The position numbers were made by a program, and so were the translations under genes. Shown piece after piece: positions 1,865 to 30,739 of a stretch of 64,000 nucleotides of DNA (positions within the stretch are counted from its first letter, which is position 1; each line of letters opens with the position of its first letter). The notes below the pieces were generated by a model. It saw only the letters and a list, made by a program, of their open reading frames with translations, had not been told where the DNA came from and did no database searches. The stretch lies in assembly GCF_057098645.1 (NCBI RefSeq), contig NZ_CM169472.1; one strand, 5' to 3'.

Positions 1865-1985
1865 ACGCTTTTCCTTGTGGATCTCAACTCGCCAGCACCT
1901 ATCTTACATGCCGGTCCGTATCAGAGATACTTTTTGAGTGGCTTTGCCGGTGATTAAAAATCAAGGAGGGTGTAACGACAAGTTG

Positions 1986-2115
1986 CAGGCACAAAAAAAC
2001 CACCCGAAGGTGGTTTCACGACACTGCTTATTGCTTTGATTTTATTCTTATCTTTCCCATGGTACCCGGAGCGGGACTTGAACCCGCACAGCGCGAACGC
2101 CGAGGGATTTTAAAT
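1986..2115. repeat. Left direct repeat (attL) of island: 130-bp copy of leuZ 3' end (56 nt) plus downstream terminator region
   Basis: 130 bp with one mismatch to 30579..30708; contains a tRNA-Leu 3' fragment (2060..2115, minus) and a hairpin/T-run copy (about 1993..2017). Confidence 0.85.
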
Positions 2116-4952: not shown

Positions 4953-5708
4953 CTACATATCAGCCAACAACATCCCAGCCATGCCATCCAGCCGTTTCTT
5001 GACCTTTTCCCACCCAGGCATAACCTGCCCCATCAGGCGGTAAAACTCTTCACTGTGGTTGTGCTCAGCAACATGGCATAACTCATGTAGCAAAACATAA
5101 TCGATACATTCTGAGGATGCCTTAACCAGCCATGGATTCAGGGTCAGACAGCCTTTTGCTGAACAGTTGCCCCATTGCGTTTGCATCGCCCGCAGACGTA
5201 TCGGAGGACGCTCACTGACCCAAAGGGTCTGCGGAATCAGTAAATCAAGCCTGCGCTGAAAAACATCTCTGGCACGTTCCCGATACCATTCAGCCAGCAA
5301 GGCTTTAATCTTTTCTGCCGATTTGTGTCTGACAGTCACTTCCAGACGCCCACGCAACATTTTCACTCGTTGCGGCACAGTAGCGTCTTCTGTCACTTTC
5401 AACTGATATTGCTTACCGAGATAATAATGGCTTTCTCCGCTGACATACTGACGCGGAACAATGTGTGTCTGTTGCTCCCTGAAATCACGCAGTTGCTGGT
5501 ATATCCAGCGCCCACGTTTTTTCAGCGCAGACAATACCTCGTGCTCCGGTGTTTCAGGCGGTACAGAGGCCACAACCCGGCAGTCCGGATAAACCTTGAT
5601 GAGCACCCTGCCCTTTACGACCTGACGCGGAACACACTGTACGACGATGACCTCATCACCATAGACAATGCGTAACGCTTTCATTGATGGCGATTCTTTT
5701 TCACTCAT
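4953..5708 (-). CDS. DUF45 / M48-like zinc metallopeptidase (YgjP-like)
   Basis: 251-aa ORF with HELCHVAEHNH (HExxH) motif; start overlaps hsdR stop by 4 bp, implying co-transcription; this family commonly follows hsdR. Confidence 0.7.
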   Translation of the reverse strand: MSEKESPSMKALRIVYGDEVIVVQCVPRQVVKGRVLIKVYPDCRVVASVPPETPEHEVLSALKKRGRWIYQQLRDFREQQTHIVPRQYVSGESHYYLGKQYQLKVTEDATVPQRVKMLRGRLEVTVRHKSAEKIKALLAEWYRERARDVFQRRLDLLIPQTLWVSERPPIRLRAMQTQWGNCSAKGCLTLNPWLVKASSECIDYVLLHELCHVAEHNHSEEFYRLMGQVMPGWEKVKKRLDGMAGMLLADM

Positions 5709-8700
5709 GATTTCATCAAACCAACGCGCAGTATCTGGATGATGGTTTCCACAATACGGTTAACCTGATTCATTCCGGCACCAATTTCCCGGCAGGCCGT
5801 AAACAGCAGTGGTAGCAGACTTGTCTTAACGACTTTCTCAATGTCCTGGGGGTTCAGGGAGTTTTCTGCCACCGCTTTGACGATAATGTTGTCCACGTCA
5901 AAAGCCAGCTTCGTCCACTTATCCTGCACTTGAACGTCTTTTACCACAAAAACCTCAGGTAGCTCTTTTTTAAATACACCGTAATATGCCTGAGCATGCT
6001 TGTTTACCGCCAAAGCATCCGGGATATCACTGAGCTTACGGGCTTTAACCTGTTCTTCAAACTCACGGAATAAGAGGTACTGCTTAAGTGGATGGTCGAA
6101 CAGTTTTTCAGCCTCTTCGATTGCCATACGCAGGAGTCTGGAAAAGGCCTCCTGAGCATACGGATCATCACGCAGCTCCTGCTCAATCATCTTCGTCACA
6201 CGGGTTTTAATGATGTCGGTTTCATTGCGGGTTTTATTGTTATCCCACTCTTCGGGTTTTTCGCTCTTGCCCATTTTACCGACTTCATACACGCCATCCG
6301 GTTCACGAACCTCAACGCCGGTAACATGCTTATCCAGCAATTTTTTCACCTGCTCAGCGTAGTCGTCATAATTGACCTGCTCTCCACTTACCTGCATCGC
6401 CCACTGGCGAAGGCTGGACATCTGTTTTACGGTTTCTTTATAGAGATTTCGGTCTTGTTCCGTAAAGCTCTTGTCGGTGAAGAAGGTAGCGGACTGCAGT
6501 GCCACTTTCAGGCATCCGGCAAAGGCCGTTAACGCCTCGAAGAAATCATCACGGGTTTTCTGATGGATATCGACCATCTCTCCGTCACGTTCTTCCATTT
6601 TAGGCACCAGTACTGCACGTAACTGCTCAGTATCATTTTTGTTTTTAACACCGGCAAATATGGCCCACAACTGGTTATACAGATGCGGCAGACGTTTATA
6701 TTCAGAGCTCATGGCGCTGTACAGCCCGTCAATATCCTTGATGTCGTATCCTCCCTGGGTTCGGGAGGCGAGATCCTGATATTTGCCGATAGTCGTGTCC
6801 AGTTCAGCCAGAATGCCGCGATAATCAATCAGCAGGCCAAACTTTTTCAGTGGATGCAGACGGTTTACCCTTGCAATCGCCTGGATAAGGTTGTGGGACT
6901 TAAGCGGCTTGTCGATATACAGCACGGTATTCTTCGGTTCATCAAATCCGGTGAGCAGTTTATCAACGACGATCAGTAATTTGAGCTTATCATCAGTATC
7001 GAAACGACTGATGATATTGCGGGTATACACAGACTCATCCTGCATGCCGACGTTATCTTTCCACCATTTCGTCACTTCCGGCAGTTTGCTTTCATCCACC
7101 TCAGTATTCCCTTCCCGGGTATCCGGCGGGCTGATAACTACAGCTGACTCAAACAACCCGGCTTCATCAAGATACTTTTTATATTTGATGGCGGAAATCT
7201 TGCTGTCGCAGGCAAGTTGGCCTTTCAGCCCCTCATCAATATTCTTCGAGAAGTGTGTGGCGATATCGAGTGCGATCAGCCGGATGCGGTCATCTGCACT
7301 GTAGACCTCACCTTTACGGGCATATTTACGTTTAAGGTCGGCTTTTTGCGCTTCGCTTAACCCATCGGTAATACGGTCAAACCAGGCATCTATTGCCCGA
7401 TCGTTAACCTCAAGGTCGGGAATACGTTCTTCATACAGCAAAGGTGTAACGGCTTTATCTTCTACCGCTCGCTGCATGGTATAAGCGTGGACAATCGGCC
7501 CGAATTTATTGGTGGTCTTATCTTCTTTTAGCAATGGCGTACCGGTGAATGCCACAAAGGCGGCGTTCGGCAGTGCCAGTTTCATTCGCACATGGTTCTC
7601 ACCCCCCTGGCTGCGGTGTCCTTCATCAATCAGAACGATGATGTCGGGGCTGGTATTGACGCATTCAGGCAATTTTGTCGCTGAGTTAAATTTCTGGATA
7701 AGGGTAAAGATTATACGTTCTTTACCAGAGCCAATCTGCTGTGCCAGCTTCTGACCTGAGGTCGCCATCGCTTTGGCCTTATCATCCTTCCCTGCCAGTT
7801 CGCCACCAGAGACAAAAGTGCCGCTGAGCTGCCCTTCAAGGTCCACGCGGTCCGTCACCACCACAATACGACACTGCTTCAGGCTGTCATGAAGGATCAG
7901 CGCCTTGCTGAGGAATACCATGGTGTAAGATTTACCTGACCTCGTGGTATGCCAGATCACCCCACCTTCCCTGCCCCCGTCTGGTCTGCGGGTACTGATG
8001 CGTTCCAGCAGTCTTTTTATCCCGAACACCTGCTGATAGCGGGCAACAATTTTTCCGGTTTTTTTATCAAACAGGGTGAAGAAGCGGGTCATCTCCAGCA
8101 GACGTTCCGGTGAAAGCAGACTGATGAGCAGCTTATCCTGCCCGCTGACTGCCAGTTCCCCCCCATCGATTAACTGTTGATACCATTTGAGATCGACTGA
8201 AGGACGATGATCAAACAACGCATGAATTTGTTCAGTCGATAACTGATGGTTGCGCAGCGCATACATCTGCGGATCGGTAATATCTTCTTCGCGCCATGCC
8301 GCCCAGAATTTCATTGGCGTATGGCATGTACCGTAGCGCCCGTCATGACCGTTAATCGAAAGTAATAACTGGCTGTAGACAAACAGCTGCGGGATTTCAT
8401 CGTTGAACTGGTTGCGGATACTCTGGGATATCCCCTCGTCAATGGTTGGCCCTTTCTTGCCATGACCAGCCGGGCTTTTCGCTTCAATAACAGCCAGCGG
8501 GATACCATTAACAAAGCAGACAATATCCGGTCTGCGGGTTTCAACACCGCCTGACCGCAATACCGTAAATTCTTCAGTAAAATGGAACTGGTTATTTTCC
8601 GGATGTTCCCAGTCGATCAGCGCAATGGTGGGGTTGACCTTCTTGCCATCGACAAATTCGGTGACGGCGATACCGTAGAGCAGATGGTTATACATCCGTT

Positions 8701-8989
8701 CATTGGCTTTGAGCAGCCCTTCATTCAGCGCCGGAGAACAGACCTGTGATATCAGGTTATCCAGTGCTTTTTCCGATAACTGGCAGTTTTTGCCACCCGC
8801 CATAAAGGAACGCTTCGACAGCTCTTCACGCAGAACCGGACGCAGCACCACCTCATCCTGTTTATAGCCCCGGTAATCCATAATCTGTTTCGGAGATAAA
8901 AACGTCCAGCCGAGGCTGGTCAGTAACGTCAGTGCCGGGATTTTGGCGCTGTATTCTTCCTGGAATTTAGGTTGGTAGTGCTTATCCAC
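5705..8989 (-). CDS. hsdR: Type I restriction enzyme R (restriction/translocase) subunit
   Basis: 1094-aa ORF with helicase-type motifs (e.g. VLIDEGHRSQ DEAH-like box); operon context with hsdM/hsdS. Confidence 0.88.
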   Translation of the reverse strand: MDKHYQPKFQEEYSAKIPALTLLTSLGWTFLSPKQIMDYRGYKQDEVVLRPVLREELSKRSFMAGGKNCQLSEKALDNLISQVCSPALNEGLLKANERMYNHLLYGIAVTEFVDGKKVNPTIALIDWEHPENNQFHFTEEFTVLRSGGVETRRPDIVCFVNGIPLAVIEAKSPAGHGKKGPTIDEGISQSIRNQFNDEIPQLFVYSQLLLSINGHDGRYGTCHTPMKFWAAWREEDITDPQMYALRNHQLSTEQIHALFDHRPSVDLKWYQQLIDGGELAVSGQDKLLISLLSPERLLEMTRFFTLFDKKTGKIVARYQQVFGIKRLLERISTRRPDGGREGGVIWHTTRSGKSYTMVFLSKALILHDSLKQCRIVVVTDRVDLEGQLSGTFVSGGELAGKDDKAKAMATSGQKLAQQIGSGKERIIFTLIQKFNSATKLPECVNTSPDIIVLIDEGHRSQGGENHVRMKLALPNAAFVAFTGTPLLKEDKTTNKFGPIVHAYTMQRAVEDKAVTPLLYEERIPDLEVNDRAIDAWFDRITDGLSEAQKADLKRKYARKGEVYSADDRIRLIALDIATHFSKNIDEGLKGQLACDSKISAIKYKKYLDEAGLFESAVVISPPDTREGNTEVDESKLPEVTKWWKDNVGMQDESVYTRNIISRFDTDDKLKLLIVVDKLLTGFDEPKNTVLYIDKPLKSHNLIQAIARVNRLHPLKKFGLLIDYRGILAELDTTIGKYQDLASRTQGGYDIKDIDGLYSAMSSEYKRLPHLYNQLWAIFAGVKNKNDTEQLRAVLVPKMEERDGEMVDIHQKTRDDFFEALTAFAGCLKVALQSATFFTDKSFTEQDRNLYKETVKQMSSLRQWAMQVSGEQVNYDDYAEQVKKLLDKHVTGVEVREPDGVYEVGKMGKSEKPEEWDNNKTRNETDIIKTRVTKMIEQELRDDPYAQEAFSRLLRMAIEEAEKLFDHPLKQYLLFREFEEQVKARKLSDIPDALAVNKHAQAYYGVFKKELPEVFVVKDVQVQDKWTKLAFDVDNIIVKAVAENSLNPQDIEKVVKTSLLPLLFTACREIGAGMNQVNRIVETIIQILRVGLMKS

Positions 8990-9058
8990 CCGGTAATCCT
9001 TCTTGGCTAAGAGGTGAAACTGTATGTCCTTACGGACATACTCAAAATGAACGAAGAC

Positions 9059-11549: not shown

Positions 11550-12189
11550 TCGGCAACCGCCTCATCGACCTTAACACGACGTTTGCCAGTCAGTAGCTGT
11601 TGCATCAGGGCTTTTTTCTCGTCTTTCAGGCAGGCGAGTTTTTTCTCCAGCGTGGAGATTTCAGCGTCGGCAGCGGAAAGGACGGCGGCGATTTTTTGTT
11701 GTTCTTTGATATCTAATGGCAACCTAAAGTCTTTCTCTTTAAGTTCTCGCATATGTCTGCTGTAACCTAAATTCGGAATATCTGTATTTGAAAGAAGATA
11801 GTATCCAAGTTTTGGTTCAAGTATTTTGCTAGTTTTTATTACTTGCGTTCCATCAGCACCGGGACAAAACACAAACTCAATCCATTTGACGCATCTTGTA
11901 TGATCGCCAAAAACAATCACAGGCACGTCCGAATAAACCTCTAAATTATTACAGTACCCAGCAATTCGACTTTGCCCTTGATCGATTATAGGGATGGAAC
12001 CTGACTGTAAATAATCGGAAGATTTGACTTGCGCCGATTTTTTATTTGCAACAATGAAAGCATTATCAAACGTTAAATATACCCACTCCCCATTAAACCT
12101 CCCCCCATTCTCATCCAGCAAGCGTTTTTGTCCGGTAAGCAATTGCTGCATCAGGGCTTTTTTCTGTTGCTGGCTGTTGGTGAGAAGCG

Positions 12190-13245
12190 GCTTTGTTGAA
12201 TAAATCAGATTTCGGGTAAGTCTCCCCCGTAGCGGGTTGTGTTTTCAGGCAATACGCACGCTTTCAGGCATACCTGCTTTCGTCATTTTGTTCAGCGCTC
12301 GTACCAGGGCCATAGCCTCCGCAACCTGACCATCGTAGTCACGCAGCGTCAGTGAACCCCCGAACAGCTGTTTTACCCGGTACATCGCCGTTTCCGCTAT
12401 CGAGCGACGGTTGTAATCTGTTGTCCATTTCCACCGCGCATTACTCCCGGTCATTCGCTGATTAGCCACTGCACGGTTACGGTCTGCATATTCACCGGGC
12501 CAGTAGCCCGCACCTTTTCGGGGAGGGATAAGCGCGCTGATTTTCTTACGCCGCAGTTCATCGTGACATAGCCGGGTATCGTAAGCGCCATCGGCGGCGG
12601 CTGACCTGATTTTCCGGTGGGTTTGCCGGATTAACCCGGGGAAGGCCTCTGAGTCCGTAACGTTGTTCAGCGACAGGTCTGCACAGATGATTTCATGTGT
12701 TTTACTGTCAACGGCGAGATGCAGCTTACGCCAGATACGGCGGCGTTCCTGGCCATGCTTTTTGACTTTCCACTCGCCTTCACCGAAGACCTTCAGCCCG
12801 GTGGAATCAATCACCAGATGTGCGATTTCACCCCGGGTGGGCGTTTTGAAACTGACATTAACCGACTTTGCCCGCCTGCTGACACAGCTGTAATCCGGGC
12901 AGCGTAGCGGAACGTTCATCAGAGAAAAAATGGAATCAATAAAGCCCTGCGCAGCGCGCAGGGTCAGCCTGAATACGCGTTTAATGACCAGCACAGTCGT
13001 GATGGCAAGGTCAGAATAGCGCTGAGGTCTGCCTCGTGAAGAAGGTGTTGCTGACTCATACCAGGCCTGAATAGCTTCATCATCCAGCCAGAAAGTTATG
13101 GAGCCACGGTTGATGAGGGCTTTATTGTAGGTGGGCCAGTTGGTGATTTTGAACTTTTGCTTTGCCACGGAACGGTCTGCGTTGTCGGGAAGATGCGTGA
13201 TCTGATCCTTCAACTCAGCAAAAGTTCGATTTATTCAACAAAGCC
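12190..13245 (-). mobile_element. IS5-family (IS903-group) insertion sequence, copy 1
   Basis: ~1057 bp; terminal inverted repeats GGCTTTGTTGAATAAATC at both ends; flanked by 9-bp target-site duplication GTGAGAAGC (12181..12189 and 13246..13254). Confidence 0.85.
12245..13213 (-). CDS. IS903-group (IS5 family) transposase
   Basis: 322-aa ORF; DDE transposase with ...LIDSTGLKVFGEGEWKVKKHG...WRKLHLAVD... region; identical protein encoded at 28742..29710. Confidence 0.88.
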   Translation of the reverse strand: MKDQITHLPDNADRSVAKQKFKITNWPTYNKALINRGSITFWLDDEAIQAWYESATPSSRGRPQRYSDLAITTVLVIKRVFRLTLRAAQGFIDSIFSLMNVPLRCPDYSCVSRRAKSVNVSFKTPTRGEIAHLVIDSTGLKVFGEGEWKVKKHGQERRRIWRKLHLAVDSKTHEIICADLSLNNVTDSEAFPGLIRQTHRKIRSAAADGAYDTRLCHDELRRKKISALIPPRKGAGYWPGEYADRNRAVANQRMTGSNARWKWTTDYNRRSIAETAMYRVKQLFGGSLTLRDYDGQVAEAMALVRALNKMTKAGMPESVRIA

Positions 13246-13815: not shown

Positions 13816-15339
13816 TCACGAGCCATAACCCAACTCCTTCAAATACCCTGCCATCTCAACTTCCAGCTTCGCCAGTTCCACCTTCAGTTGCTCACGCTCT
13901 GCTCGCACCGCCACCAGGTCAATCTCATCCTCTTCTTCAAAGGTATCGACATAGCGCGGAATATTGAGGTTGTAATCGTTGTCCTGAATTTCCTTCAGGC
14001 TGGCAAGATAGGCGTATTTCTCGACGTTATCGCCATCACGGTAGGTCTTGACGATTTTCTTAATGTTTTCTTCGCTAAGCTGGTTCTGGTTTTTACCTGC
14101 CTTGAATTCACGGCTGGCATCGATAAACAGCACCTTGTCATCAACTTTCTACTTTTTGAAAATCAGAATCGCAGCCGGAATCCCCGTACCGTAGAACAGT
14201 TTTTCCGGCAGACCAATTACCGCATCCAGCAAATTTTCGTCGATCAGTTTCTGGCGAATTTTACCTTCGCTGGAGCCACGGAAAAGCACACCGTGTGGCA
14301 CAACTACGCCCATACGGCCAGTTCCCGGTTTCAGGGTTTCGATCATATGCGAGATAAAAGCGTAATCTCCTTTAGTCTTCGGCGGTACACCGCGACGAAA
14401 ACGGCCAAACTTATCGTTCTCGGCCTCGTCATGGCCCCACTTATCGAGGCTGAACGGTGGGTTAGCGGTCACGATATCAAACAGCATCAGGTCGCCATTT
14501 TTATCGAGCAGCTTCGGGTTACGAATGGTATCGCCCCACTCGATTTTATGGTTGTCTTCCCCGTGCAGGAACATATTCATTTTCGCCAGCGACCACGTAG
14601 AACCGATCGCTTCCTGACCGAACAAGGCATAGTTACGACTATCATGCCCGGAGACAATTTTACGCCCACACTTCATCAATAATGAACCGGAACCACAGGC
14701 TGGATCGCAGATGGTATCACCCGGTTGCGGATCGAGCAGTTCTGCAATCAGGTCCGAAACTTCCGGCGGGGTATAGAACTCCCCGGCTTTCTGCCCACCG
14801 CTGGCGGCAAAGTTTTTGATCAGGTATTCGTAAGCATTGCCGATAACGTCCAGCGTACCGACACGACTCGGCTTCAGGTTGAGATCTTCACCGGCGAAGT
14901 CTTCCAGTAGCTGACGCAGTATGGTGTTTTTCTGTTTTTCTTCGCCAAGACGATCGGTGTTAAACGAAATATCCTGGAACACGCTTTTCCCGGCATCTTT
15001 CAGTTTGGTTCCGTTGGCTTCTTCGATTGCATGCAGAGCCTGATCGATACGCTCACCGTTACCCAGCTCATGGCGGCGTTCGTACAGCGCATAAAAGCTG
15101 GCACTTTTTGGCAGTACAAAACGCTCGTTGGCCATCATCGCTTCAATCAGTTCCGGCGCATCGCCATACTGTTCTTTGTATTCGTCATAGTGATCCTGCC
15201 AGACATCTGAAATGTACTTGAGGAACAGCATGGTAAGGATAAAGTCTTTATAGGTATCAGCACTGATGGTGCCACGGAACGTATCACACGCGGCCCACAG
15301 GGCTTTGTTGATCGTGTCCTGACTGATTTTGTCGTTCAT
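13816..15339 (-). pseudogene. hsdM: Type I R-M methyltransferase subunit hsdM with in-frame amber stop
   Basis: ORFs 14149..15339 (396 aa, N6-adenine MTase motifs incl. ...IVTANPPFS...) and 13816..14133 (105 aa) are in the same frame, separated by a TAG at 14149..14151. Confidence 0.75.
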
Positions 15340-18126: not shown

Positions 18127-18269
18127 TTTCTTAATATAATGGCGACATGGAATTGTGTTGCCATTATATCCGAATCAGAATTTTTCACCTGATGAACTGT
18201 GAAAACTGAGACTGGCAGACAGTAATCTCGCACCGTATTTTTTCTGTGTTATTTTACAGGAGAAATACG

Positions 18270-19400
18270 ATGCCCATTCTGGATCTGCGTTTCAGCAACA
18301 AATCACTTCACCAACTTCCCCATCCCCTCACGGGCTGTCAGGAATACCGTGATATTCACTGCCAAAACCTGCGTGCTCTGGTGTATCCCAATCGGATCAC
18401 GCTGGCCTTTCGTGCCACTATAAACAATCAGCGTATATATGAACCCCTGGGTCAGTTCCCTCAGCTCTGCGTTGAGGATGCCCGTCAGCATGTGATGAAA
18501 CTGCTTGCTGATAAAAATCGTCTTGCGGTTCAGTCCCGTCGATTCACTGTGGAACAGGCCATCAATGACCTGTGGCTACCGGATTTGCAGTTGTATAAAA
18601 AGAGTCCTCAGTCAGAGTTGTCAAAACTCAACCTCTACGTTCGCCCGTTCTGGGGCAAGCGGCAACTTCGCGACATCACGGCAGGAGAACTAGAACAATA
18701 TGCTGCTGGCTTACGGGAAAAATTACGTCCGTCAACAGTAAACCGTATCCTCGCAATATTGTCCAAAATATGCTCTCTGGCAGTACGTGCTGGATGGATC
18801 ACGCATTCCCCGATGTCACATGTCCGCTATCTGAAAGAAAATAACATTCGCTATCGCACACTATCAGCGACAGAAATCCCGCGCTTTATTGACGCGGCAA
18901 CAGCGCTGCAAACACCGGCAGCTGATTCTATATTGCTTGCTCTTTATACGGGGATGCGTATTGGTGAGGTATGTACCCTGAAATGGGAGTACTGGCACCT
19001 GGATATGCATCAACTCATACTGCCTGATACAAAGTCCGGACACCCTTTCACCTGCCCACTTGCACCTCCAGCCATTGCAGTTGTCCAGTGCCAGCAGGAC
19101 CTGATGCTCAGCAAAACTTACATTTTTCCGCGACTAACCGACAATGCCCGCCCTCTGGCATATCCGCGTGCAACCTTTGCCCGTATTTGCCGGGATGCCG
19201 ACATTGATAACCTGCGGATGCATGACCTGCGCCGTACCTTTGCCACCCGGGTACTACAGGCGACCGGGGATATTGCAATCGCTTCCCATCTGCTAAATCA
19301 CCATTCACTCACGGCGACCCGTCGCTACGCTTTTCACAATGCAGCGACATCACACGCAGTGGTTTCTCAGGTCATTGAAAGTTATGACACGAAAAAATGA
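18270..19400 (+). CDS. Tyrosine recombinase / phage-type integrase
   Basis: 376 aa from the ATG at 18270, which is preceded by AGGAG; C-terminal catalytic region ...HDLRRTFATRVLQ...HLLNHHSLTATRRYAF (R..H..R..Y). Confidence 0.85.
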   Translation: MPILDLRFSNKSLHQLPHPLTGCQEYRDIHCQNLRALVYPNRITLAFRATINNQRIYEPLGQFPQLCVEDARQHVMKLLADKNRLAVQSRRFTVEQAINDLWLPDLQLYKKSPQSELSKLNLYVRPFWGKRQLRDITAGELEQYAAGLREKLRPSTVNRILAILSKICSLAVRAGWITHSPMSHVRYLKENNIRYRTLSATEIPRFIDAATALQTPAADSILLALYTGMRIGEVCTLKWEYWHLDMHQLILPDTKSGHPFTCPLAPPAIAVVQCQQDLMLSKTYIFPRLTDNARPLAYPRATFARICRDADIDNLRMHDLRRTFATRVLQATGDIAIASHLLNHHSLTATRRYAFHNAATSHAVVSQVIESYDTKK

Positions 19401-19440
19401 ACCAATGATCTGTGATTCGTGAAAGCAGTTCGCAGAAAGA

Positions 19441-19608: not shown

Positions 19609-19786
19609 GAACACGGAAAATAACGCTAATAATGCACTGAACATTCTTCCCGAATCAGCAAGCACAGCTGTAGACAACGATGAAAAATATCTGTCCTTTG
19701 CATTAGTTCTCGCTATCACGATTATGGGCAACTGAACCGCCCCGGGAATCCTGGAGACTAAACTTCCTGAGAAAGAGGTAAACAGG

Positions 19787-20113
19787 ATGACTAAAAATAC
19801 TCGTTTTTCCCCTGAAGTCCGTCAACGGGCAGTCCGTATGGTTCTGGAAAGTCAGGGCGAATATGACTCACAATGGGCGACAATTTGTTCCATTGCTCCA
19901 AAGATTGGCTGTACGCCGGAGACTCTGCGTGTCTGGGTTCGCCAGCATGAGCGGGATACCGGGGGCGGTGATGGAGGGCTCACCACCGCTGAACGTCAGC
20001 GTCTGAAAGAGCTGGAGCGTGAAAATCGTGAACTGCGCCGCAGTAACGATATCCTTCGCCAGGCTTCCGCTTATTTTGCGAAGGCGGAGTTCGACCGCCT
20101 CTGGAAAAAATGA
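19787..20113 (+). CDS. IS3-family transposase OrfA (HTH)
   Basis: 108-aa [22 protein letters not shown]..., typical IS3-family OrfA with leucine-zipper-like C-terminus. Confidence 0.85.
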
Positions 20114-21000
20114 TGCCACTGCTGGATAAGCTGCGTGAGCAGTACGGGGTCGGACCGCTATGCAGCGAACTGCATATTGCCCCGTCAACGTATTACCACT
20201 GTCAGCAACAGCGACATCATCCGGATAAACGCAGTGCCCGTGCGCAGCGCGATGACTGGCTGAAGAAAGAGATACAGCGCGTATACGATGAAAATCACAA
20301 GGTATACGGTGTGCGTAAAGTCTGGCGTCAGTTGTTACGGGAAGGTATCAGAGTGGCCAGATGCACTGTGGCACGTCTCATGGCGGTTATGGGACTTGCC
20401 GGTGTTCTCCGGGGTAAAAAGGTCCGTACGACCATCAGCCGGAAAGCCGTTGCCGCAGGCGACCGCGTAAACCGTCAGTTCGTGGCAGAACGACCTGACC
20501 AGCTGTGGGTGGCTGATTTTACTTACGTCAGCACATGGCAGGGCTTCGTCTATGTGGCGTTCATCATTGATGTGTTTGCCGGATACATTGTGGGGTGGCG
20601 GGTCTCATCGTCCATGGAGACGACATTCGTGCTGGATGCACTGGAGCAGGCGTTATGGGCCCGTCGACCGTCCGGCACGGTCCATCACAGTGATAAAGGT
20701 TCTCAGTATGTATCGCTGGCCTACACACAGCGGCTTAAGGAAGCCGGATTACTGGCATCAACAGGAAGTACAGGCGACTCGTATGACAACGCGATGGCGG
20801 AGAGCATCAATGGTCTTTACAAAGCGGAGGTAATACACCGTAAGAGCTGGAAAAACCGTGCAGAAGTGGAACTGGCCACACTCACGTGGGTGGACTGGTA
20901 TAACAATCGACGATTGCTGGAAAGGCTGGGCCATACTCCTCCGGCAGAAGCAGAAAAAGCTTATTATGCTTCCATCGGAAACGATGATCTGGCAGCCTGA
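20110..21000 (+). CDS. IS3-family transposase OrfB (DDE integrase-like catalytic domain)
   Basis: 296-aa ORF with DDE motif region (...WVADFTYV...HHSDKGSQY...[10 protein letters not shown]...). Confidence 0.85.
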
Positions 21001-21662
21001 GTTCACAGATAAAACACTCTCCAGGAAACCCGGGGCGGTTCAAACTTAGTAAAGCTCATCGGCACAGATGGCTTCATACTTTATACCTACACCCTGCAGG
21101 ACACGGCTACTGCTCGTGCTGTTTTTAATGAATTAGCCAGGCGTCTCAAAAATTTCAATCGTCAGGAGGAGGTCTACACCACCGATTCCCTCACCTTTCG
21201 AATGAAATACATTTACGGTGTTACCCTGTTCGAACATGATAGTAAATCTATCCTTAACCTTTTTGATAAGAAGGGTTATCCAGTATTGAGTGAATCAGGA
21301 GAACCCGGTTCTCTTGATGATATGTATCTTGACATTCAAGCCCGATTACATGGCGGCTACGCCTCAAAAAAGTTTCTTCATTTACATGAACATTGTCTGT
21401 TATCTGCACACGTTACCCCGTCTGTGGAAAAGACGCAACGTGGTATCCTGATTAAAGCAGGCAGGAAACTCGTTTCCTTTATCTATGCAGATAATGAATC
21501 TCGCAAAAATGATATTTTCAAAGCTGTAGTAGACGTCATTAAATCCTGATTCATTATGCCGGGTGCGTATTCCGCTCTATTCGATCACGGATTGGCATCG
21601 AAGTCCGATCAGCGATTCGCATCCATTCGATCAACCGGGAACTTAACTTTTTCTACCGCTTT

Positions 21663-22418
21663 TTAACGCGTTTTTTCGCTGCTTTCCACTACCGGGGGAT
21701 TTTTCCTCAGTGACTCTCCCTGAAGGACCACTCGGTGTGAGTTATGTACCAGTCTGTCCAGGATGGCATCTGCTGTTGTTGGGTTCTCCATCAGACCATG
21801 CCATTTATCTACCGGGAACTGGCTTACCACTATCGTGCTGCTTTGTCCGTAACGATCCTCTATGAGCTCCAGAAGGTCATTACACTGGGCGTTACTTAAC
21901 TGTTCCAGCCCCAGATCGTCCAGGATTAGAACCTGTATTTTTTGCAACTGTTTCAGATATTTCAGCCAGCTGCCATCAACACGTCCCTGAGCCAGTTGTT
22001 CCAGTAATCGCCCGGTTCTACAGTACCGGACGCTGTGTTTCTGTCGACATGCCTGTTCGCCCAGCGCATTGGCTATCCAGCTCTTGCCACATCCTGTCGG
22101 ACCGGTTATCAGCAGGTTTTTCCTGTGGGTTATGTAGTGGCCGTTCAGCAGTTCTCTCATCTGTTCAGCCCGCAGACCTCTTGAGGCCGGATAGCGCAGC
22201 CCTTCCGGTGTTGCCTGGTATTTCAGGCCGGCATTTTTTCTCAACCGTGCCACACGGCTGTTTTCCCTGCTCAGAAGCTCGTCATCAACCAGCAGCGTCA
22301 GCCTTTCCTCGAACGACAGTTCGTCGTAGGTCTGAGGCGTTTCCCGCTGCCGTATCAGGCTCCCGGCCATCGCCGGGAGTTTCAGTTGGGTCAGTTTGTT
22401 TAACAGGTTATCACTCAT
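21663..22418 (-). CDS. istB: IS21-family helper ATPase IstB
   Basis: Walker A GPTGCGKS and Walker B-like ILDDLG motifs; start set at MSDNLLNKL within the longer ORF 21663..22661. Confidence 0.8.
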   Translation of the reverse strand: MSDNLLNKLTQLKLPAMAGSLIRQRETPQTYDELSFEERLTLLVDDELLSRENSRVARLRKNAGLKYQATPEGLRYPASRGLRAEQMRELLNGHYITHRKNLLITGPTGCGKSWIANALGEQACRQKHSVRYCRTGRLLEQLAQGRVDGSWLKYLKQLQKIQVLILDDLGLEQLSNAQCNDLLELIEDRYGQSSTIVVSQFPVDKWHGLMENPTTADAILDRLVHNSHRVVLQGESLRKNPPVVESSEKTR

Positions 22419-22434
22419 ACTGTTGTTCCTTCTG

Positions 22435-23970
22435 TCAGTGGTAGTAGCCCGGACCACGCAGGTTTTCATGCTCTGAAGCATATGCCGGATGTTGTTCGCC
22501 CTGGCGGGATAATGGAAGCTCCAGGTTCTCCCGATGGTGACGCAGCAGATTGTCGATAAAGCGTCTGTCAGGGGCGTTATAGTGCAGGGCAACGTAACAG
22601 GCCTTTTCCAGCCGTTCCGGGCCGTATTTTTTCTGAAGTGCCAGCAGCCCCAGAACTGCACGATAAGCCAGTTCCGGATGGGGTTTTGCCTTCAGCATGG
22701 ATTCAACCACCCGGCCTGTGGACGGGCCCGTACGTTTTCCCTGCTCGATCAGGCGTTCCGGTGTCCATGTCCCGTGCTGCCGGTGGCGCTCTGGCATGTG
22801 AAGCGGATTGGTTGTGTGTTTATATTCATGTGTGCTGCGCGGATGTTGCGCCACACACTGCCCCTTGTGCCAGAGCTGTACCACCGACTGCCCCGCCTTC
22901 AGTGACAGACGCTGACCGACCAGTTCGTGTGGAACGGAGTACCAGTGACGGGCATATTCAACGTGGTAGTCAGGGCCAACCTTCACAGCTTTGTATTCCG
23001 TGTATTCATAAGGTGCCAGAGGCAGCGGAGAGAGTGCTGGCGCATCCAGTATGCGGAAGCGTTCTGCACGGGTTTGATTGCCGTACCCCTTCATTGGCCG
23101 GTTATTCATGTCTGTCAGTAACTCCCTAAGGCGCGCATTCAGCGCCCTGAGCGTGTGGAAGGTTTCATTACGGATGCGGGCAAGAAGCCATCGTTCAACG
23201 ATGAGGACGCCGTTTTCTGCTTTTGGTTTATCTTTAGGTTTGCGTGGTCGGGCCGGGATGATAACCGTGCCATAGTGCTCAGCCAGTGCCTGATAACTGT
23301 CGTTGATGACAGGCTCATATCGATCGGCCTTTTTCACTGCGCTTCTGAGGTTATCGGGGATGAGCAGCTTCGGTACGCCGCCCAGGAAGGTCAGGCAACG
23401 GCTGTGGGCATTTAACCATGACATCATGTCCTGACCTTCGCACGCTTCAACGTAGGTATAGTTGGACGCCCCCATTACGGCCACGAAGATTGCCACGCGG
23501 CGTATCTCACCGGTGTCCGGATTAATAACAGGAACCGTAGGACCACAGAAGTCGATAAAAAGCTTTTCGCCGGCACGATGCTCCTGGCGCATGGAGAGAC
23601 GTCGCGTTTTTTTCCACTCCCGGTAGCAACGGCAGAAGTGCGAGTATCCCATCGCTTTGTTACCCGCCTGTGCCTTGTATTCCATCCACAACAGTTGCCG
23701 CGTCACACCTGGTTTTCTCATTTCCGTATCGAAGTACAACATGTCAGGCATTACAAGCTCTGATGCAAAGGTGTCTTTGGGCGGAAAAATGAGTTTCTCC
23801 AGCGTGTCATGGGATATATCAGCAGGTAATGGCCATGACAGAGAAGAGGCTTTGAAGCGGGCAAGAACCTCAAAAACGGTTGAGGCGCTGATGTGTAACG
23901 TCAGTCCGATACAACGGTTAGTCAGCTTCTTGTCGAACTTGAGCTGAAGGATCTTAAAACAGGTTTCCAT
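22435..23970 (-). CDS. istA: IS21-family transposase IstA
   Basis: Large ORF 22435..24081 with N-terminal HTH and DDE catalytic region; start uncertain (internal Met chosen); overlaps istB start, as typical for IS21. Confidence 0.75.
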   Translation of the reverse strand: METCFKILQLKFDKKLTNRCIGLTLHISASTVFEVLARFKASSLSWPLPADISHDTLEKLIFPPKDTFASELVMPDMLYFDTEMRKPGVTRQLLWMEYKAQAGNKAMGYSHFCRCYREWKKTRRLSMRQEHRAGEKLFIDFCGPTVPVINPDTGEIRRVAIFVAVMGASNYTYVEACEGQDMMSWLNAHSRCLTFLGGVPKLLIPDNLRSAVKKADRYEPVINDSYQALAEHYGTVIIPARPRKPKDKPKAENGVLIVERWLLARIRNETFHTLRALNARLRELLTDMNNRPMKGYGNQTRAERFRILDAPALSPLPLAPYEYTEYKAVKVGPDYHVEYARHWYSVPHELVGQRLSLKAGQSVVQLWHKGQCVAQHPRSTHEYKHTTNPLHMPERHRQHGTWTPERLIEQGKRTGPSTGRVVESMLKAKPHPELAYRAVLGLLALQKKYGPERLEKACYVALHYNAPDRRFIDNLLRHHRENLELPLSRQGEQHPAYASEHENLRGPGYYH

Positions 23971-24594
23971 AGTGCTCCTGGATTTTCTCTTTCTGGACAT
24001 TGACGTCTCCACTGGTTTAAACACGGCAATGGAGACTGTGGTGAAAAGAGTTAATTCCCGGAGTGACTGGCAGGATGCCAATCAATGATCGGAAGCATGC
24101 CAAATCGTGATCGATTGTGATGCCAAACTGTGATCGGAGATGGATGCCAAATCATGATCGATTCGAATGCCAAACTGCGATCGATTCAGATGCCATTTTG
24201 CAGCCGGGGGGGACGAACTCCCGGCATTTTTTCGGAGTTAACTATGAGCAATAATTTGCAGGACATCCTCGCTGCCGCATCGGGGTATCAGTCCGTGACT
24301 TCAGAGCCAGCGCTCAATCTTAAAAGACCTAAAACGCTTGATGATTATCCTGTGATACCACCTGCATCAAAAAAAGTATCTGTTATTTCAAGTGACCTGA
24401 CACTCCATATCGGTTTTGATACCGAATATGTTTTCAATCCTGAAACACAACAGAATGATATTCTGTCATATCAGAGTTATGTTGTCTTACCCGATAATAC
24501 AGGTATATCGAACATTATCTATCCACCTGACTCACAGAAAAAATCCCGGCTGTCTTTTAAGAACTTTCTCTGTCAAACGATTATGGATTTGCCC

Positions 24595-25500
24595 CTATAT
24601 TTCCAGACATCTGTTATCACTTAACCCATTACAAGCCCGCTGCCGCAGATATTCCCGTGGCGAGCGATAACCCAGCGCACTATGCGGATGCCATTCGTTA
24701 TAATGCTCGAACGCCTCTGCAAGGTTCTTTGCTGCCGTTAACCCGTCTGGTTTGGGCATGATACTGATGTAGTCACGCTTTATCGTTTTCACGAAGCTCT
24801 CTGCTATTCCGTTACTCTCCGGACTCCGCACCGCCGTGTTCTTCGGTTCAAGTCCCAACATCCGGGCGAACTGGCGTGTTTCATTAGCCCGGTAGCATGA
24901 ACCATTATCCGTCAGCCACTCCACTGGAGACGACGGAAGATCGTTGCCGAAGCGGCGTTCCACCGCTCCCAGCATGACGTCCTGTACTGTTTCACTGTTG
25001 AAGCCGCCGGTAGTCACCGCCCAGTGCAGTGCCTCACGATCACAGCAGTCCAGCGCGAACGTGACACGCAGTCTCTCTCCGTTATCACAGCAGAACTCGA
25101 ACCCGTCAGAGCACCATCGCTGATTGCTTTCTTTCACGGCCACTCTGCCTGTATGTGCCCGTTTCGATGGCGGTACAGCAGGTTTTCGCTCAAGCAACAG
25201 CGCATTCTGGCGCATGATCCGGTAAACACGTTTGGCATTGATCGCAGGCATACCATCAAGTTCTGCCTGTCTGCGAAGCAGCGCCCATACCCGACGATAA
25301 CCATACGTGGGCAGCTCTCCGATAACATGGTGTATACGGAGAAGCACATCCGTATCATCAGTGTGACGACTGCGGCGGCCATCCATCCAGTCATCGGTTC
25401 GTCTGAGAATGACGTGCAACTGCGCACGCGACACCCGGAGACAACGGCTGACTAAGCTTACTCCCCATCCCCGGGCAATAAGGGCGCGTGCGCTATCCAC
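24595..25500 (-). CDS. insD: IS2 transposase OrfB (InsD)
   Basis: 301-aa [24 protein letters not shown]... with DDE integrase core; overlaps insC as expected for a frameshift-fusion transposase. Confidence 0.85.
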
Positions 25501-25823
25501 TTTTTTGCCCGTCCATATTCAACGGCTTCTTTGAGGAGTTCATTTTCCATCGTTTTCTTGCCGAGCAGGCGCTGGAGTTCTTTAATCTGCTTCATGGCGG
25601 CAGCAAGTTCAGAGGCAGGAACAACCTGTTCTCCGGCGGCCACAGCAGTAAGACTTCCTTCCTGGTATTGCTTACGCCAGAGAAATAACTGGCTGGCTGC
25701 TACACCATGTTGCCGGGCAACGAGGGAGACCGTCATCCCCGGTTCAAAGCTCTGCTGAACAATTGCGATCTTTTCCTGTGTGGTACGCCGTCTGCGTTTC
25801 TCCGGCCCTAAGACATCAATCAT
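25458..25823 (-). CDS. insC: IS2 transposase OrfA (InsC)
   Basis: Starts [26 protein letters not shown]..., the InsC sequence as recalled; taken from the internal Met of ORF 25458..25868. Confidence 0.85.
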
Positions 25824-27974
25824 CTGTTCTCCAATGACTAGTCTAAAAACTAGTATTAAGACTATCACTTATTTAAGTGATACTGGTTGTCTGGAGATTC
25901 AGGGGGCCAGTCTAGATTACACCGCTTCTTGAAACGGGTGTGATTACAAAATGGCCCGGTATTATTAATATATATGCGCATTTCATTCGTGCGGATATCA
26001 CCTCCTTTGCCAATTTCTGGTCAGACTACAAAATTCTTCTGAAAGGAATACGCGGTACTGTCAGCAGCTTCAAAAATCGTTACGGTATCGATTTTGATGA
26101 ACAGCAGGAACGTCGCGTAAAGACTGAACAGATAATGTTTGACAAACGAACTTCCCCTCCGCGTTGCAGTAACGTAGCTTTCATCGATACACTGCTTATC
26201 ACTCCCGGGGGTATGGGTCTGGCTGAATGTGGTGAATTACTGGGTCTTCCCAAACTGACCATTCCTGCACCTTATTCCATAACCAATATGCGTGAATATC
26301 TTCTGGGCGACAGAGCAGGGTTTGAAGCCTATGCTCTGCGGGATGCCGAGATTGCGGTTCGTTATGCTTTACAGGTTCGCAATTTTTGCGCCCGGGAGCT
26401 GATGATTGATCGTGTCCCCGCCACCATCGGGGCGATGGCAGTTTCACGGTTCACCAAAACACTTAAAGAAAACAATATGTCTCCTGAAGTCTGCCTTGGG
26501 ACACACATTAAAACCCGTGAACTCTGGCTCACGGAGAAACAGGCATTCCGGACGATTAAAAACCCCGCCAGTGTTCCTTCAAGAGAGCTGTTTGAAACGT
26601 TCCCGATCAACTGTTACCACGGCGGACGCAATGAGTGTTTTATGATGGGGGTTACACCGTCTGATCACTGGTATGACTACGATCTGGCTGGAGCGTATAC
26701 CACCGGGCTATTAGATATCCTCATACCCGATTACGGAAACATCCGCCTCAGTAAAAATCCGGACGATTACTGTGGGCATGTAATGGGATTTGCGTTTGTC
26801 ACATTTCAGTTCCCGGAATCAGTTCCCTATCCCAGCCTGCCGGTTCGGACCGATCAATATGGGTTATTCTTTCCATTAAGTGGCGAATCATGGGCAACGG
26901 CACCTGAAATCGAACTTGCTCTGTCGCTCGGGGCAGAGATGACGATCCATAATGGGATCATCGTCCCCTGGATCTGTGACACCTCCCCACATAACAGCGA
27001 ATCAACATCGGTGTTTCTTCCCTTTGTTCAACAGGTCCGTGAGAACCGTAATCGCCATATTAAAGGTTCTCTGGAGGAGAAATTCTGGAAAGAAATTGGC
27101 AACTCGCTTTATGGCAAACTTGCTCAGGGCCTTCGCGCCAAAACCGCCTTTGATACTGCCCGTGGATTAAACAGATCCCTCCCACCATCATCGGTTACTC
27201 AGCCATTCTTTGCTGCGCATGTGACGGGATTTATCCGCGCCGTTGTCGGGGAACTCATGAATGCTTTGCCTTCTGATTCATCGGTTGTCAGCGTCACAAC
27301 CGATGGCTTTTTGACAAATTGCCCACTTAACAAGATAAACATGAGCGGTCCACTGTCTTCCCGCTTCCAGTCGCTGTGCGATATTGTTGATCCGGGTTCA
27401 TCAATGTTGACATGTAAGCATGAGGTCAGCCAGCTTATCGCCATGAAAACCCGGGGGCAGTTAACCTATAGAGCTATTCAGGGAAAACCTGTTGTTCATG
27501 CCAGGGCTGGCGTCAAACCTCCTGCCGATATTCCACGCAGTGACTATAACGACTATATGGTAGATCTTTACCTTAATCGTTTACCCGGTCAGACGTTATC
27601 CCGAAGTACGTTGATATCAACGCGTGAGATGTGGCTGTCGGAAAGCGATCTGGTATCCCGGGAACAGGATATCCGTCTTAATCTGGAATTCGATTTCAAA
27701 CGCCAGCCCGTACAGCCCGCCATGAATGAAGGGCATTTACTGATGTCTTCCCGCCCATGGGATAATATGGAAGAGGCTCTGCAGCAACGCTCTCTTTTCG
27801 ACGACTGGCGGCAAACGCATACACTGAAGACCCTGGCTGACTGGGATGACTGGTGTGATTTTCTCTATTGCCGGACGGTGTTTTCTGATATGAAACTAAA
27901 AGTCGGAAGCAAACGTAGTGATGATATTTTAGTCAGACTATTTCTCCGGGCGCTGACTCAGTGCCAATGGGGGC

Positions 27975-28523
27975 TTATGCTGAAAGATAAAAAAAGTTAT
28001 TCCTGTAAAGAGGTTGCTGAATGGCTGACGTCAGAAGGCTATTCAGTAACATGTCAAAAAGCACCTGCTGGATCTCCCGGGCCCGAAGGTCGCAGTAACG
28101 TATCTTCCCCAGACGAGGTTCAATGTATTGCGTGAAACGCTGAACATCCTTATCCCAGGACTTTTTATGGCGTTTGATGAACGGAACATAGGTCTGGTGA
28201 AAAAACTCACTAAGTGTTGGCATCGCACGATAATTATCGCGTTCTGCTTTAGGGTCATTTCCCAGTGCAATCGCCTCCTTGTGACGACGAGCTATCTGAC
28301 GGGCTGTCCCCACATCGATTTCAGGGAATCTGCCAATACTGATACTTTTTTTGGTACCGTGGAATGTGTAGCGCAGGAGGAAACGTTTGTTACCCGTTCG
28401 ACCTGAGAGACATTTGAGGCCTATGACCTCGGTATCTGATACCTCAAGCTCTGTAGATCGGGTATCTGTGTTTGCCGGAAGGGCTTTGATGGATGAATTG
28501 GTGAATCGGAAGGATTTTTGCAT
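27975..28523 (-). pseudogene. Truncated P4-type integrase (N-terminal arm-binding domain only)
   Basis: ORF 27975..28553; MQKSFRFTNSSIKALP...GTARQIARRHKEAIALGNDP resembles the DUF4102 arm-binding N-terminus of P4-family integrases; no catalytic domain; 3' part overlaps the piPolB 3' end on the opposite strand. Confidence 0.5.
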
Positions 28524-28709: not shown

Positions 28710-29766
28710 GGCTTTGTTGAATAAATCGAACTTTTGCTGAGTTGAAGGATCAGATCACGCATCTTCCCGACAACGCAGACCGTTCCGTGGCAAAGCAAAA
28801 GTTCAAAATCACCAACTGGCCCACCTACAATAAAGCCCTCATCAACCGTGGCTCCATAACTTTCTGGCTGGATGATGAAGCTATTCAGGCCTGGTATGAG
28901 TCAGCAACACCTTCTTCACGAGGCAGACCTCAGCGCTATTCTGACCTTGCCATCACGACTGTGCTGGTCATTAAACGCGTATTCAGGCTGACCCTGCGCG
29001 CTGCGCAGGGCTTTATTGATTCCATTTTTTCTCTGATGAACGTTCCGCTACGCTGCCCGGATTACAGCTGTGTCAGCAGGCGGGCAAAGTCGGTTAATGT
29101 CAGTTTCAAAACGCCCACCCGGGGTGAAATCGCACATCTGGTGATTGATTCCACCGGGCTGAAGGTCTTCGGTGAAGGCGAGTGGAAAGTCAAAAAGCAT
29201 GGCCAGGAACGCCGCCGTATCTGGCGTAAGCTGCATCTCGCCGTTGACAGTAAAACACATGAAATCATCTGTGCAGACCTGTCGCTGAACAACGTTACGG
29301 ACTCAGAGGCCTTCCCCGGGTTAATCCGGCAAACCCACCGGAAAATCAGGTCAGCCGCCGCCGATGGCGCTTACGATACCCGGCTATGTCACGATGAACT
29401 GCGGCGTAAGAAAATCAGCGCGCTTATCCCTCCCCGAAAAGGTGCGGGCTACTGGCCCGGTGAATATGCAGACCGTAACCGTGCAGTGGCTAATCAGCGA
29501 ATGACCGGGAGTAATGCGCGGTGGAAATGGACAACAGATTACAACCGTCGCTCGATAGCGGAAACGGCGATGTACCGGGTAAAACAGCTGTTCGGGGGTT
29601 CACTGACGCTGCGTGACTACGATGGTCAGGTTGCGGAGGCTATGGCCCTGGTACGAGCGCTGAACAAAATGACGAAAGCAGGTATGCCTGAAAGCGTGCG
29701 TATTGCCTGAAAACACAACCCGCTACGGGGGAGACTTACCCGAAATCTGATTTATTCAACAAAGCC
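28710..29766 (+). mobile_element. IS5-family (IS903-group) insertion sequence, copy 2
   Basis: Same ends as copy 1 (GGCTTTGTTGAATAAATC inverted repeats), inverted relative to copy 1; flanked by 9-bp target duplication CCGTGCCGT (28701..28709 and 29767..29775). Confidence 0.85.
28742..29710 (+). CDS. IS903-group (IS5 family) transposase
   Basis: 322-aa ORF identical in sequence to the one at 12245..13213. Confidence 0.88.
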   Translation: MKDQITHLPDNADRSVAKQKFKITNWPTYNKALINRGSITFWLDDEAIQAWYESATPSSRGRPQRYSDLAITTVLVIKRVFRLTLRAAQGFIDSIFSLMNVPLRCPDYSCVSRRAKSVNVSFKTPTRGEIAHLVIDSTGLKVFGEGEWKVKKHGQERRRIWRKLHLAVDSKTHEIICADLSLNNVTDSEAFPGLIRQTHRKIRSAAADGAYDTRLCHDELRRKKISALIPPRKGAGYWPGEYADRNRAVANQRMTGSNARWKWTTDYNRRSIAETAMYRVKQLFGGSLTLRDYDGQVAEAMALVRALNKMTKAGMPESVRIA

Positions 29767-30578
29767 CCGTGCCGTTTGAAGAATACTGGCATTCACCGAT
29801 AAAAATCATGCTGGTTGGACGTGAAACCGCAGGCTGGAATACGCTGAATGGTAAGAATACGATATCACGGGTGTTGGGACTTATACCTGACGTCACCATC
29901 GGGCAAGTGGTTGAAGAAGCTGTAGATCGTTACAGGAAACATCTTCCGGTACAAAATTATGGCACCGCCAACCTCAAATCACGTAGCCGCTTCACGCAAT
30001 ATCATTTCAGGCTGGCCCGGGAGCTTAATATTCTTCCCCAGGCAATCGTGTATGCCAATCTACTGGCGTGGGATTACGACGGACTGACCCCTCTCAATCG
30101 CCCTCAAAATGAAGTGCAGGAAGTCATATTAGCCTCGCTGAAGCTACTGGCGGTACAAATTAAACACCTTGAGCCTGATTTCATCATCTTTGCATCTGGA
30201 GCCCGGAGAACAGACTACATCATAAAACAGGTGCTTACTGAGCTAGGCGGCTATGAGACTTCTTCAGTCATTCCGGGGAAGCTGTGGGAGTTCAAAACAG
30301 GTAATACAATCTGTTTCAGAATTGCCCATCCAAGGGCTATGCGCGGACACCAGAAGTACAGAGATGAGGTGATTGCACGAATTAAGCAACTTTGTACTCA
30401 GGGTGGCTAGAGCATTACAGCTTGCTCAGCAGGGCCCCTTCCCGGAAGAGTACCGGAAAACAGGCAAAGCAACCTGGTTCTCTATGCTGGAGGCGACACG
30501 TTCGATTCGGCATTGCCAGGCTGGAGATTGCAGCTCATTGCACCCCGTGAGCACAGGATATGCACAGGACATGAATTT

Positions 30579-30708
30579 CAGGCACAAAAAAACCACCCGG
30601 AGGTGGTTTCACGACACTGCTTATTGCTTTGATTTTATTCTTATCTTTCCCATGGTACCCGGAGCGGGACTTGAACCCGCACAGCGCGAACGCCGAGGGA
30701 TTTTAAAT
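30579..30708. repeat. Right direct repeat (attR): leuZ 3' end plus downstream terminator region
   Basis: 130 bp matching 1986..2115 with one mismatch; overlaps the intact tRNA-Leu 3' 56 nt. Confidence 0.85.
30586..30612 (-). terminator. Rho-independent terminator of the glyW-cysT-leuZ tRNA operon
   Basis: Minus-strand hairpin aaccacc-tccg-ggtggtt followed by a T7 run immediately 3' of leuZ. Confidence 0.7.
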
Positions 30709-30739
30709 CCCTTGTGTCTACCGATTCCACCATCCGGGC
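30653..30739 (-). tRNA. leuZ: tRNA-Leu (anticodon UAA)
   Basis: 87-nt sequence GCCCGGATGGTGGAATCGGTAG...CTCCGGGTACCA on the minus strand; anticodon loop TTTAAAA; long variable arm; encoded CCA. Confidence 0.9.

Follow-up and report, generated by a model that had tools for sequence, protein, structure and literature searches.

IS2 insertion in the piPolB gene of a decayed Escherichia coli-type pipolin

Introduction

How did piPolB, the DNA polymerase gene of a pipolin, come to lie in two pieces, and was the gene still sound when it was broken? We address this question for a 64,000-nucleotide stretch of contig NZ_CM169472.1 (NCBI RefSeq assembly GCF_057098645.1), hereafter the window. E. coli pipolins integrate at a Leu-tRNA gene and carry piPolB between att repeats (PMC7385651), and they are viewed as defence islands (PMC11551731). 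In the window, the two parts of piPolB are separated by a copy of the insertion sequence (IS) IS2. An earlier sequence-only reading had called the gene a pseudogene that apparently arose by a single clean event. Our analysis leads with high confidence to a slightly different answer: piPolB was split by a clean IS2 insertion at codon 114 in an island that was already decayed, and is now a pseudogene.

Results

The IS2 insertion and the restored reading frame

The IS2 copy interrupts codon 114 of piPolB, between the ExoI and ExoII motifs. Its ends were read directly from the sequence (start, TGGATTTGCCCC; end, GGGGGCCAGTCTA), and it is flanked on both sides by GATTA (Table 1). A 5-bp target duplication is usual for IS2 transposition. 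Both transposase frames match their NCBIfam models over the full length: 'IS2 transposase TnpB' (NF006918) with 724.6 bits against a cut-off of 597 and 301/301 positions covered, and 'IS2 repressor TnpA' (NF006928) with 275.8 bits against a cut-off of 229 and 121/121 positions covered. The A6G slippery site for frameshifting was found as well. Matching copies are labelled 'IS3-like element IS2 family transposase' by RefSeq in thousands of E. coli genomes, and IS2 matches occur in 4378 of 5426 E. coli genomes. At 7 of its 1331 bases the copy differs from an independent IS2 that sits in another piPolB allele (L014; loci retrieved from public data are given L numbers). The event is a simple IS2 insertion into codon 114 with a 5-bp duplication, and the flanking sequence was neither lost nor rearranged. 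An IS-mediated deletion or rearrangement at this site was considered and ruled out, since the target duplications are intact and exact empty sites are present in relatives; the same two features hold for all five IS elements of the island.

Excision of 24584..25919, i.e. IS2 and one GATTA copy, joins 24244..24583 to 25920..28135 and yields a 2556-nucleotide open reading frame (ORF) of 851 codons with 0 internal stops. The alternative excisions, of IS2 alone or of IS2 with both GATTA copies, lead to early stops. The healed gene and the uninterrupted coding sequence of WP_022582033.1 ('DNA-directed DNA polymerase', 851 aa) in E. coli O145 RM9872 agree at 2556/2556 bases; the 5' fragment matches positions 8960-9340 of the RM9872 locus (L001) with 100% identity. 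A 672-nucleotide probe over the healed junction has unbroken cover in 274 complete E. coli genomes, in 70 of them at ≥99% identity. Because of this base-for-base identity and the 274 uninterrupted genomes, the restoration of the frame is not due to chance. In its present state the 5' fragment encodes a product of 126 aa, 13 residues of which are IS2-derived, and stops at 24624.

The healed protein contains the motifs of a family-B DNA polymerase. ExoI (GFD59-T-E61) lies in the N-terminal fragment; it is followed by ExoII (HFIRAD, 134-139), ExoIII of the Yx3D type (YALRD, 251-255), PolA including D368, and PolB (KEIGNSLYG, 504-512). PolC is present as the variant TTD (573-575, in VTTDGF 572-577), in which TTD replaces DTD and only the second carboxylate is retained; this variant has been described for piPolB (PMC5695915). 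In place of the PolB KxY motif the protein has KH-x8-KTRG (KHEVSQLIAMKTRG, 613-626), with K613, H614, K623 and R625. The piPolB of E. coli 3-373-03_S1_C2 has been studied through the variants D59A/E61A, D368A, K613A, H614A, K623A and R625A (PMC5695915). Searches against Pfam gave PF03175 (DNA_pol_B_2) below threshold only (i-E 0.0028), NCBIfam gave no match at all, and neither profile collection yielded a piPolB-specific family; a PDB search found no sequence relative. An exhaustive phmmer search, in turn, recovered 2072 family representatives (50% clustering). On the strength of the motifs, the near-identity to published E. coli piPolBs and these 2072 representatives, we assign the gene to piPolB, the primer-independent family-B DNA polymerase that is the hallmark gene of the E. 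coli-type pipolin.

Four claims of the sequence-only reading are thus borne out: the identity of the gene as a piPolB, the IS2 copy at 24584..25914 with its intact GATTA duplication, the in-frame fusion after excision of IS2 and one GATTA, and the present split of the gene, in which ExoI is divided from the polymerase motifs in the 731-aa ORF of the 3' fragment.

The C-terminal deletion in the 851-residue allele

The dominant form of piPolB has 866 aa; a single exact sequence of it (P0025) occurs on 570 contigs, and its 90%-identity cluster has 1387 members. Residues 1-824 align colinearly between the 851-aa and 866-aa forms, with 6 substitutions (99% identity), after which the two diverge completely (CQKAPAGSPGPEGRSNVSSPDEVQCIA versus VTDVKNAVRAKIPQMKFGSVTPRMKSLMDIIARKYPTFCLPA), the last 42 residues (825-866) of the longer form being replaced by 27 unrelated ones. 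The last 27 codons of the 3' fragment (28051..28135, stop included) are accordingly non-piPolB sequence. The earlier expectation that the reconstructed protein would be free of frameshifts and align along its length with intact piPolBs therefore held in part: no frameshift is present and residues 1-824 are colinear, but full-length colinearity, including the conserved C-terminus, fails in the last 27 aa.

Comparison with enterotoxigenic E. coli H10407 traces the divergent end to the loss of 5,808 bp (L010 9514-15321, blastn breakpoints), with the deletion junction at 28050/28051. There, codon 824 of piPolB meets codon 159 of a convergent integrase gene (399 aa), and the 27-residue foreign tail is read from the antisense strand of what is left of this integrase. 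The deletion also took about six cargo genes and the integrase catalytic domain. The product of the remnant matches Pfam PF13356 and is labelled in RM9872 'Arm DNA-binding domain-containing protein, missing C-terminus'. The junction is identical in 32 complete genomes without IS2, mostly O145:H28. Published surveys describe a truncated pipolin subgroup that is monophyletic, has an Arm-domain-only recombinase and has lost DNA between piPolB and the integrase (PMC11551731; PMC7385651).

The lost residues were examined in a MAFFT alignment of 106 diverged full-length family representatives (31-50% identity). Positions 825-864 are filled in about 97% of them, and N830, A831, R833, P843, T845 and P860 are conserved. 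Because of this conservation across 106 diverged members, the 42 lost residues are more than a dispensable tail. By pattern, residues ~806-833 of P0025 (window ~27995-28075; xxxEVAEWLTxxGYxxTxxDVKNAxR) may form a small helix-turn-helix, and the breakpoint at T824 would precede its putative recognition helix.

The deletion could thus already have inactivated or severely impaired piPolB by the time IS2 inserted, so that IS2 was a neutral second hit. We find this somewhat doubtful, while giving it appreciable weight. The breakpoint at T824 falls within the conserved block, the integrase of this lineage is without its catalytic domain, a 143-bp deletion affects the head of the upstream gene string, and the literature treats the lineage as the truncated subgroup described above. 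On the other hand, in 24 complete genomes the 851-aa ORF is open and has acquired no other change that disrupts the frame, its catalytic motifs are all intact, and its 6 substitutions over 824 residues are compatible with continued constraint as well as with a recent origin; no biochemical test of the 851-aa form was found in the pipolin literature examined. The 851-aa allele that preceded the IS2 insertion may already have been impaired.

Interruptions of piPolB in other genomes

piPolB is present in 295 of 5426 complete E. coli genomes. Among 60 of these 295 carriers, sampled at even intervals, four genes are interrupted by IS3-family elements and four are truncated (8/60, ~13%), and ~87% are intact. 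Truncated or interrupted piPolBs have been noted in published surveys (PMC7385651; PMC11551731). Independent knockouts were sought through the exact downstream ORFs that they leave, of 731 aa for the 851-type and 746 aa for the 866-type. Such exact-product look-ups detect disruptions only from ~24355 to 24583, i.e. upstream of codon 121. At least five other independent IS insertions were found in the first 340 bp of piPolB in public assemblies (Table 1). Two of them, the IS2 of L014 in an 866-type allele and the IS629 of RM12761 (L003 1607-2918) in an 851-type allele, are independent insertions into the same few bases, 24519-24523 (TCTATCCACC).

The 5' region was also considered as an IS hot spot, and this was rejected: the seven breakpoints are distributed rather evenly across the detectable interval, with the one coincidence at 24519-24523, and the clustering is an ascertainment effect.

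The recurrence of these insertions, IS629, IS1 and IS2 among them, together with the eight interrupted or truncated genes in the sample, could be read as a sign that knockouts of piPolB are selected beyond neutral decay. In such a case, de novo priming and translesion synthesis by piPolB would be a burden on the host after the pipolin has been immobilised as a defence island. We consider this unlikely. The look-ups were confined to disruptions upstream of codon 121, which by itself accounts for the 5' clustering; four other pipolin genes in the window have been hit by IS elements as well, and the large majority of the sampled carriers keep piPolB whole.

Loss of function

With the reading frame split, the IS2 insertion parts the catalytic residues of ExoI (D59, E61) from the remaining enzyme, whose 731-aa ORF begins 1.3 kb downstream of the stub. 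No full-length polymerase is possible, therefore piPolB is a pseudogene. A consensus scan of the interval from IS2 to GTG 25940 revealed no promoter-like site and none reading outward from IS2, no plausible ribosome-binding (Shine-Dalgarno) sequence was found ahead of this GTG, and the IS2 genes run antisense to the 731-aa ORF. Since a 120-residue part of the N-terminal fold is missing and these expression signals were not found, we infer from the anatomy of the locus that piPolB function is lost and that the 3' fragment is not expressed.

No observation is at odds with the anatomy of the locus, but two kinds weigh against this reading. One is that the D59A/E61A variant of piPolB, in which the exonuclease is dead, still polymerises in vitro (PMC5695915), and absence of ExoI alone would not abolish catalysis. 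The other is that the IS2 junctions are documented in no more than two contigs, draft or read-derived: the left junction occurs with the same 126-aa stub in GCA_029357705.1 (L002), the right junction in a contig of SRR27405698 (L009), and the left junction probe matched no complete RefSeq E. coli genome.

The first of these observations, and the retention of every polymerase motif by the 731-aa ORF, would fit continued expression of this ORF as an exonuclease-less polymerase. We regard this as very improbable, since in addition to the missing start signals and the opposing IS2 transcription, the exonuclease fold around ExoII and ExoIII would be missing its N-terminal strands and the C-terminus is non-native. 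That the IS2 copy is a misplaced repeat introduced by assembly is scarcely credible: most E. coli carry several copies of IS2, and repeats are well known to cause misjoins, but a misjoin would not produce a perfect 5-bp duplication at both junctions, and both junctions recur in the two independent public datasets.

Order of the lesions and the region upstream of piPolB

A pseudogene of piPolB by one clean event was only partly upheld: the gene is split and the IS2 insertion is clean, but the 5,808-bp deletion, an IS21-family element, an IS629-like element and the 143-bp deletion are there too. IS2 is one of several lesions at the locus, yet the sole one that breaks the piPolB reading frame.

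Upstream of piPolB lies a co-directional gene string, with a small helix-turn-helix (HTH) regulator gene at its head, then a 212-aa gene, then piPolB itself. Relative to H10407 and the locus L012, a 143-bp deletion at 19422/19423 took away an intergenic region together with codons 1-5 of the HTH gene; RM9872 has this deletion too. The 212-aa gene is split by the IS629-like element. The IS21-family element sits inside the ~50-bp spacer between the 212-aa gene and piPolB, with its end 41 bp and its duplication 36 bp from the ATG. The site is empty in RM9872, H10407 and GCA_029357705.1, and a probe for the IS21/piPolB junction matched no complete RefSeq E. coli genome. The element entered the left arm of a terminator-like hairpin located between the 212-aa gene and the piPolB ribosome-binding site. 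This hairpin is kept in the relatives examined, which suggests that normal piPolB expression depends on read-through or attenuation.

From these comparisons a history of the locus can be proposed. The 5,808-bp deletion would have come early, replacing the conserved last 42 residues of piPolB and removing the integrase catalytic domain, and so would have given rise to the 851-aa allele widespread in O145:H28; it is older than IS2, because its junction is common to the 32 complete genomes without IS2. The IS629-like element would likewise have split the 212-aa gene before IS2. IS2 then transposed into codon 114 with duplication of GATTA, as the latest lesion but one, and the IS21-family element inserted last, close to the start codon and in this genome only. 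GCA_029357705.1 carries IS2 and the IS629-like element without the IS21-family element, because of which IS21 is placed later than IS2. By sequence comparison the order of lesions is the deletion, then IS629, IS2 and IS21, and within it the step from IS2 to IS21 is the one shown.

The pipolin island and its other contents

Two att repeats, 98% identical and 28,593 bp apart, delimit the island; tyrP and yecA lie to its left, and cysT, glyW, pgsA and uvrC to its right. Because piPolB is located between the att repeats and attR lies over tRNA-Leu, as in the published elements (PMC7385651), the island is identified as an E. coli-type pipolin. The five IS elements with intact duplications make up 7,394 of its 28,726 bp (~26%). 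Of the tyrosine recombinases that mark an E. coli-type pipolin, a XerC-like one and a P4/SXT-type integrase, the second is reduced to the integrase remnant, and for the first the island has an open ORF (18246..19400), which scores under the equivalog cut-offs of NCBIfam. Between the remnant and attR, the IS903-like element at 28710..29766 splits a 246-aa hypothetical gene (28604-30407) at about codon 33-36.

Several further cargo genes were noted. The type I restriction-modification system (11546-15339) is decayed: hsdS is split by the other IS903-like copy, and hsdM aligns across all 507 codons but has an internal stop and is open over 14149..15339 only. The hsdR gene (5705..8989, 1094 aa) is still open. 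A 623-aa candidate defence protein similar to HEC-06/Orf5 is encoded at 2463-4334 (PADLOC E 1.6e-79). The island carries a second yecA paralogue (PDC-S12, 10866-11549) in addition to the chromosomal yecA (1199-1864). Cargo of this sort agrees with the picture of pipolins as defence islands (PMC11551731). Two overlapping ORFs of 115 and 186 aa (17280-18126) match one 376-aa hypothetical protein of H10407 with 85-89% identity and a gap between them; the pair probably represents one more pipolin gene that has frameshifted or diverged.

Table 1. Positions of the pipolin features in the window, followed by interruptions of piPolB in other public sequences
Feature	Position	Strand	Remarks
attL, 133-bp direct repeat	1983..2115	+	adjoins yecA
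IS903-like element, other copy	12189..13245	-	1057 bp; 9-bp duplication GTGAGAAGC; splits hsdS
IS629-like IS3-family element	19733..21042	+	1310 bp; 3-bp duplication AAC; splits upstream co-directional 212-aa gene at codon 45
IS21-family element	21564..24202	-	2639 bp; istA (548-aa) and istB (332-aa) ORFs; TG...CA ends; NCBIfam NF033546, NF038214
IS21-family target duplication GCCGGG	21558-63 and 24203-08		6 bp
Terminator-like hairpin	24203..24231	+	8-bp GC-rich stem, then ATTTTTT; -17.3 kcal/mol, z = -2.07
piPolB 5' fragment	24244..24583	+	codons 1-113 and first base of codon 114; ExoI (D59, E61)
Left IS2 target duplication GATTA	24579..24583		direct sequence reading
IS2	24584..25914	-	1331 bp; transposase genes antisense to piPolB; both reading frames intact
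IS2 orfB frame, 301 aa	24595..25500	-	overlaps orfA
IS2 orfA (InsC), 121 aa	25458..25826	-	
Right IS2 target duplication GATTA	25915..25919		direct sequence reading
piPolB 3' fragment	25920..28135	+	731-aa ORF from GTG 25940; ExoII, ExoIII, PolA, PolB, PolC, KH-x8-KTRG
Pipolin P4-type integrase remnant	28047..28523	-	codons 1-159/399, Arm DNA-binding domain only; tblastn 100% over 1-159
IS903-like (IS5-family) element	28710..29766	+	1057 bp; 9-bp duplication CCGTGCCGT
attR, 133-bp direct repeat	30576..30708	+	overlaps tRNA-Leu(UAA)
tRNA-Leu(UAA) (leuZ)	30653..30739	-	
IS629 in piPolB	window-equivalent 24521-23		O145:H28 RM12761/RM13516; 3-bp duplication ATC
IS629 in piPolB	near 24412		within ExoI codons; L005
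IS1 in piPolB	24496-504		L011, L013, L016; 95-aa stub on 37 contigs
IS2 in piPolB, opposite orientation	24519-23		L014 (GCA_964239825.1, 82-1415); 866-type allele
Two unassigned piPolB breakpoints	5' region		L008, L015
Frameshifted or nonsense piPolB allele			L012

Discussion

What is seen here is an ordinary, well-explained pseudogene, and the same IS2 allele is already present in two other public datasets. Pipolins and piPolB, IS2 with its 5-bp duplication, the truncated subgroup and IS-interrupted piPolBs are all already known, and significance beyond annotation is small. For annotation, the pipolin is best recorded as non-autonomous, with its polymerase split, one integrase truncated and about a quarter of its length made up of IS DNA. 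Its open defence genes (hsdR and the HEC-06-like gene) may be the reason for its retention. Useful lineage markers for the clade are provided by the exact empty site and by the succession of lesions. Should disruption of piPolB prove to exceed the neutral expectation, this would bear on the continued need of pipolins for their polymerase; were the knockouts selected, the 5' part of piPolB would be a recurrent target of selected IS insertions.

Comparison with known systems

The present gene is a derived member of piPolB by descent and does not represent a separate family. Its closest characterised counterpart, the piPolB of the E. coli 3-373-03_S1_C2 pipolin (PMC5695915), belongs to the same family, is near-identical in sequence and has identically numbered motif residues. 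It differs from that entry in two respects: it is split by IS2 after codon 113, and its healed form is the 851-aa one, which ends in the 27-residue foreign tail where the common 866-aa form has its last 42 residues.

The IS2 copy itself is unremarkable beside other simple gene-disrupting insertions of IS2, an IS3-family element; these have the same 1331 bp, orfA and orfB with the A6G -1 frameshift site, and a 5-bp duplication. A close parallel in piPolB is the IS629-interrupted gene of O145:H28 strains RM12761 and RM13516, where the same 851-aa allele is knocked out in its 5' region and the same 731-aa downstream ORF is left. There, the element is different (IS629-like, duplication ATC) and the site is 60 bp upstream; the event is an independent one.

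At the level of the island, the layout is that of the truncated Enterobacterales pipolin subgroup (PMC11551731; PMC7385651), with piPolB abutting an Arm-only integrase remnant beside attR and tRNA-Leu, and the deletion junction is identical to that of the O145:H28 genomes RM9872, RM12761 and FWSEC0002. To this layout the present copy adds the IS2 and IS21-family insertions, which are absent from complete RefSeq E. coli genomes.

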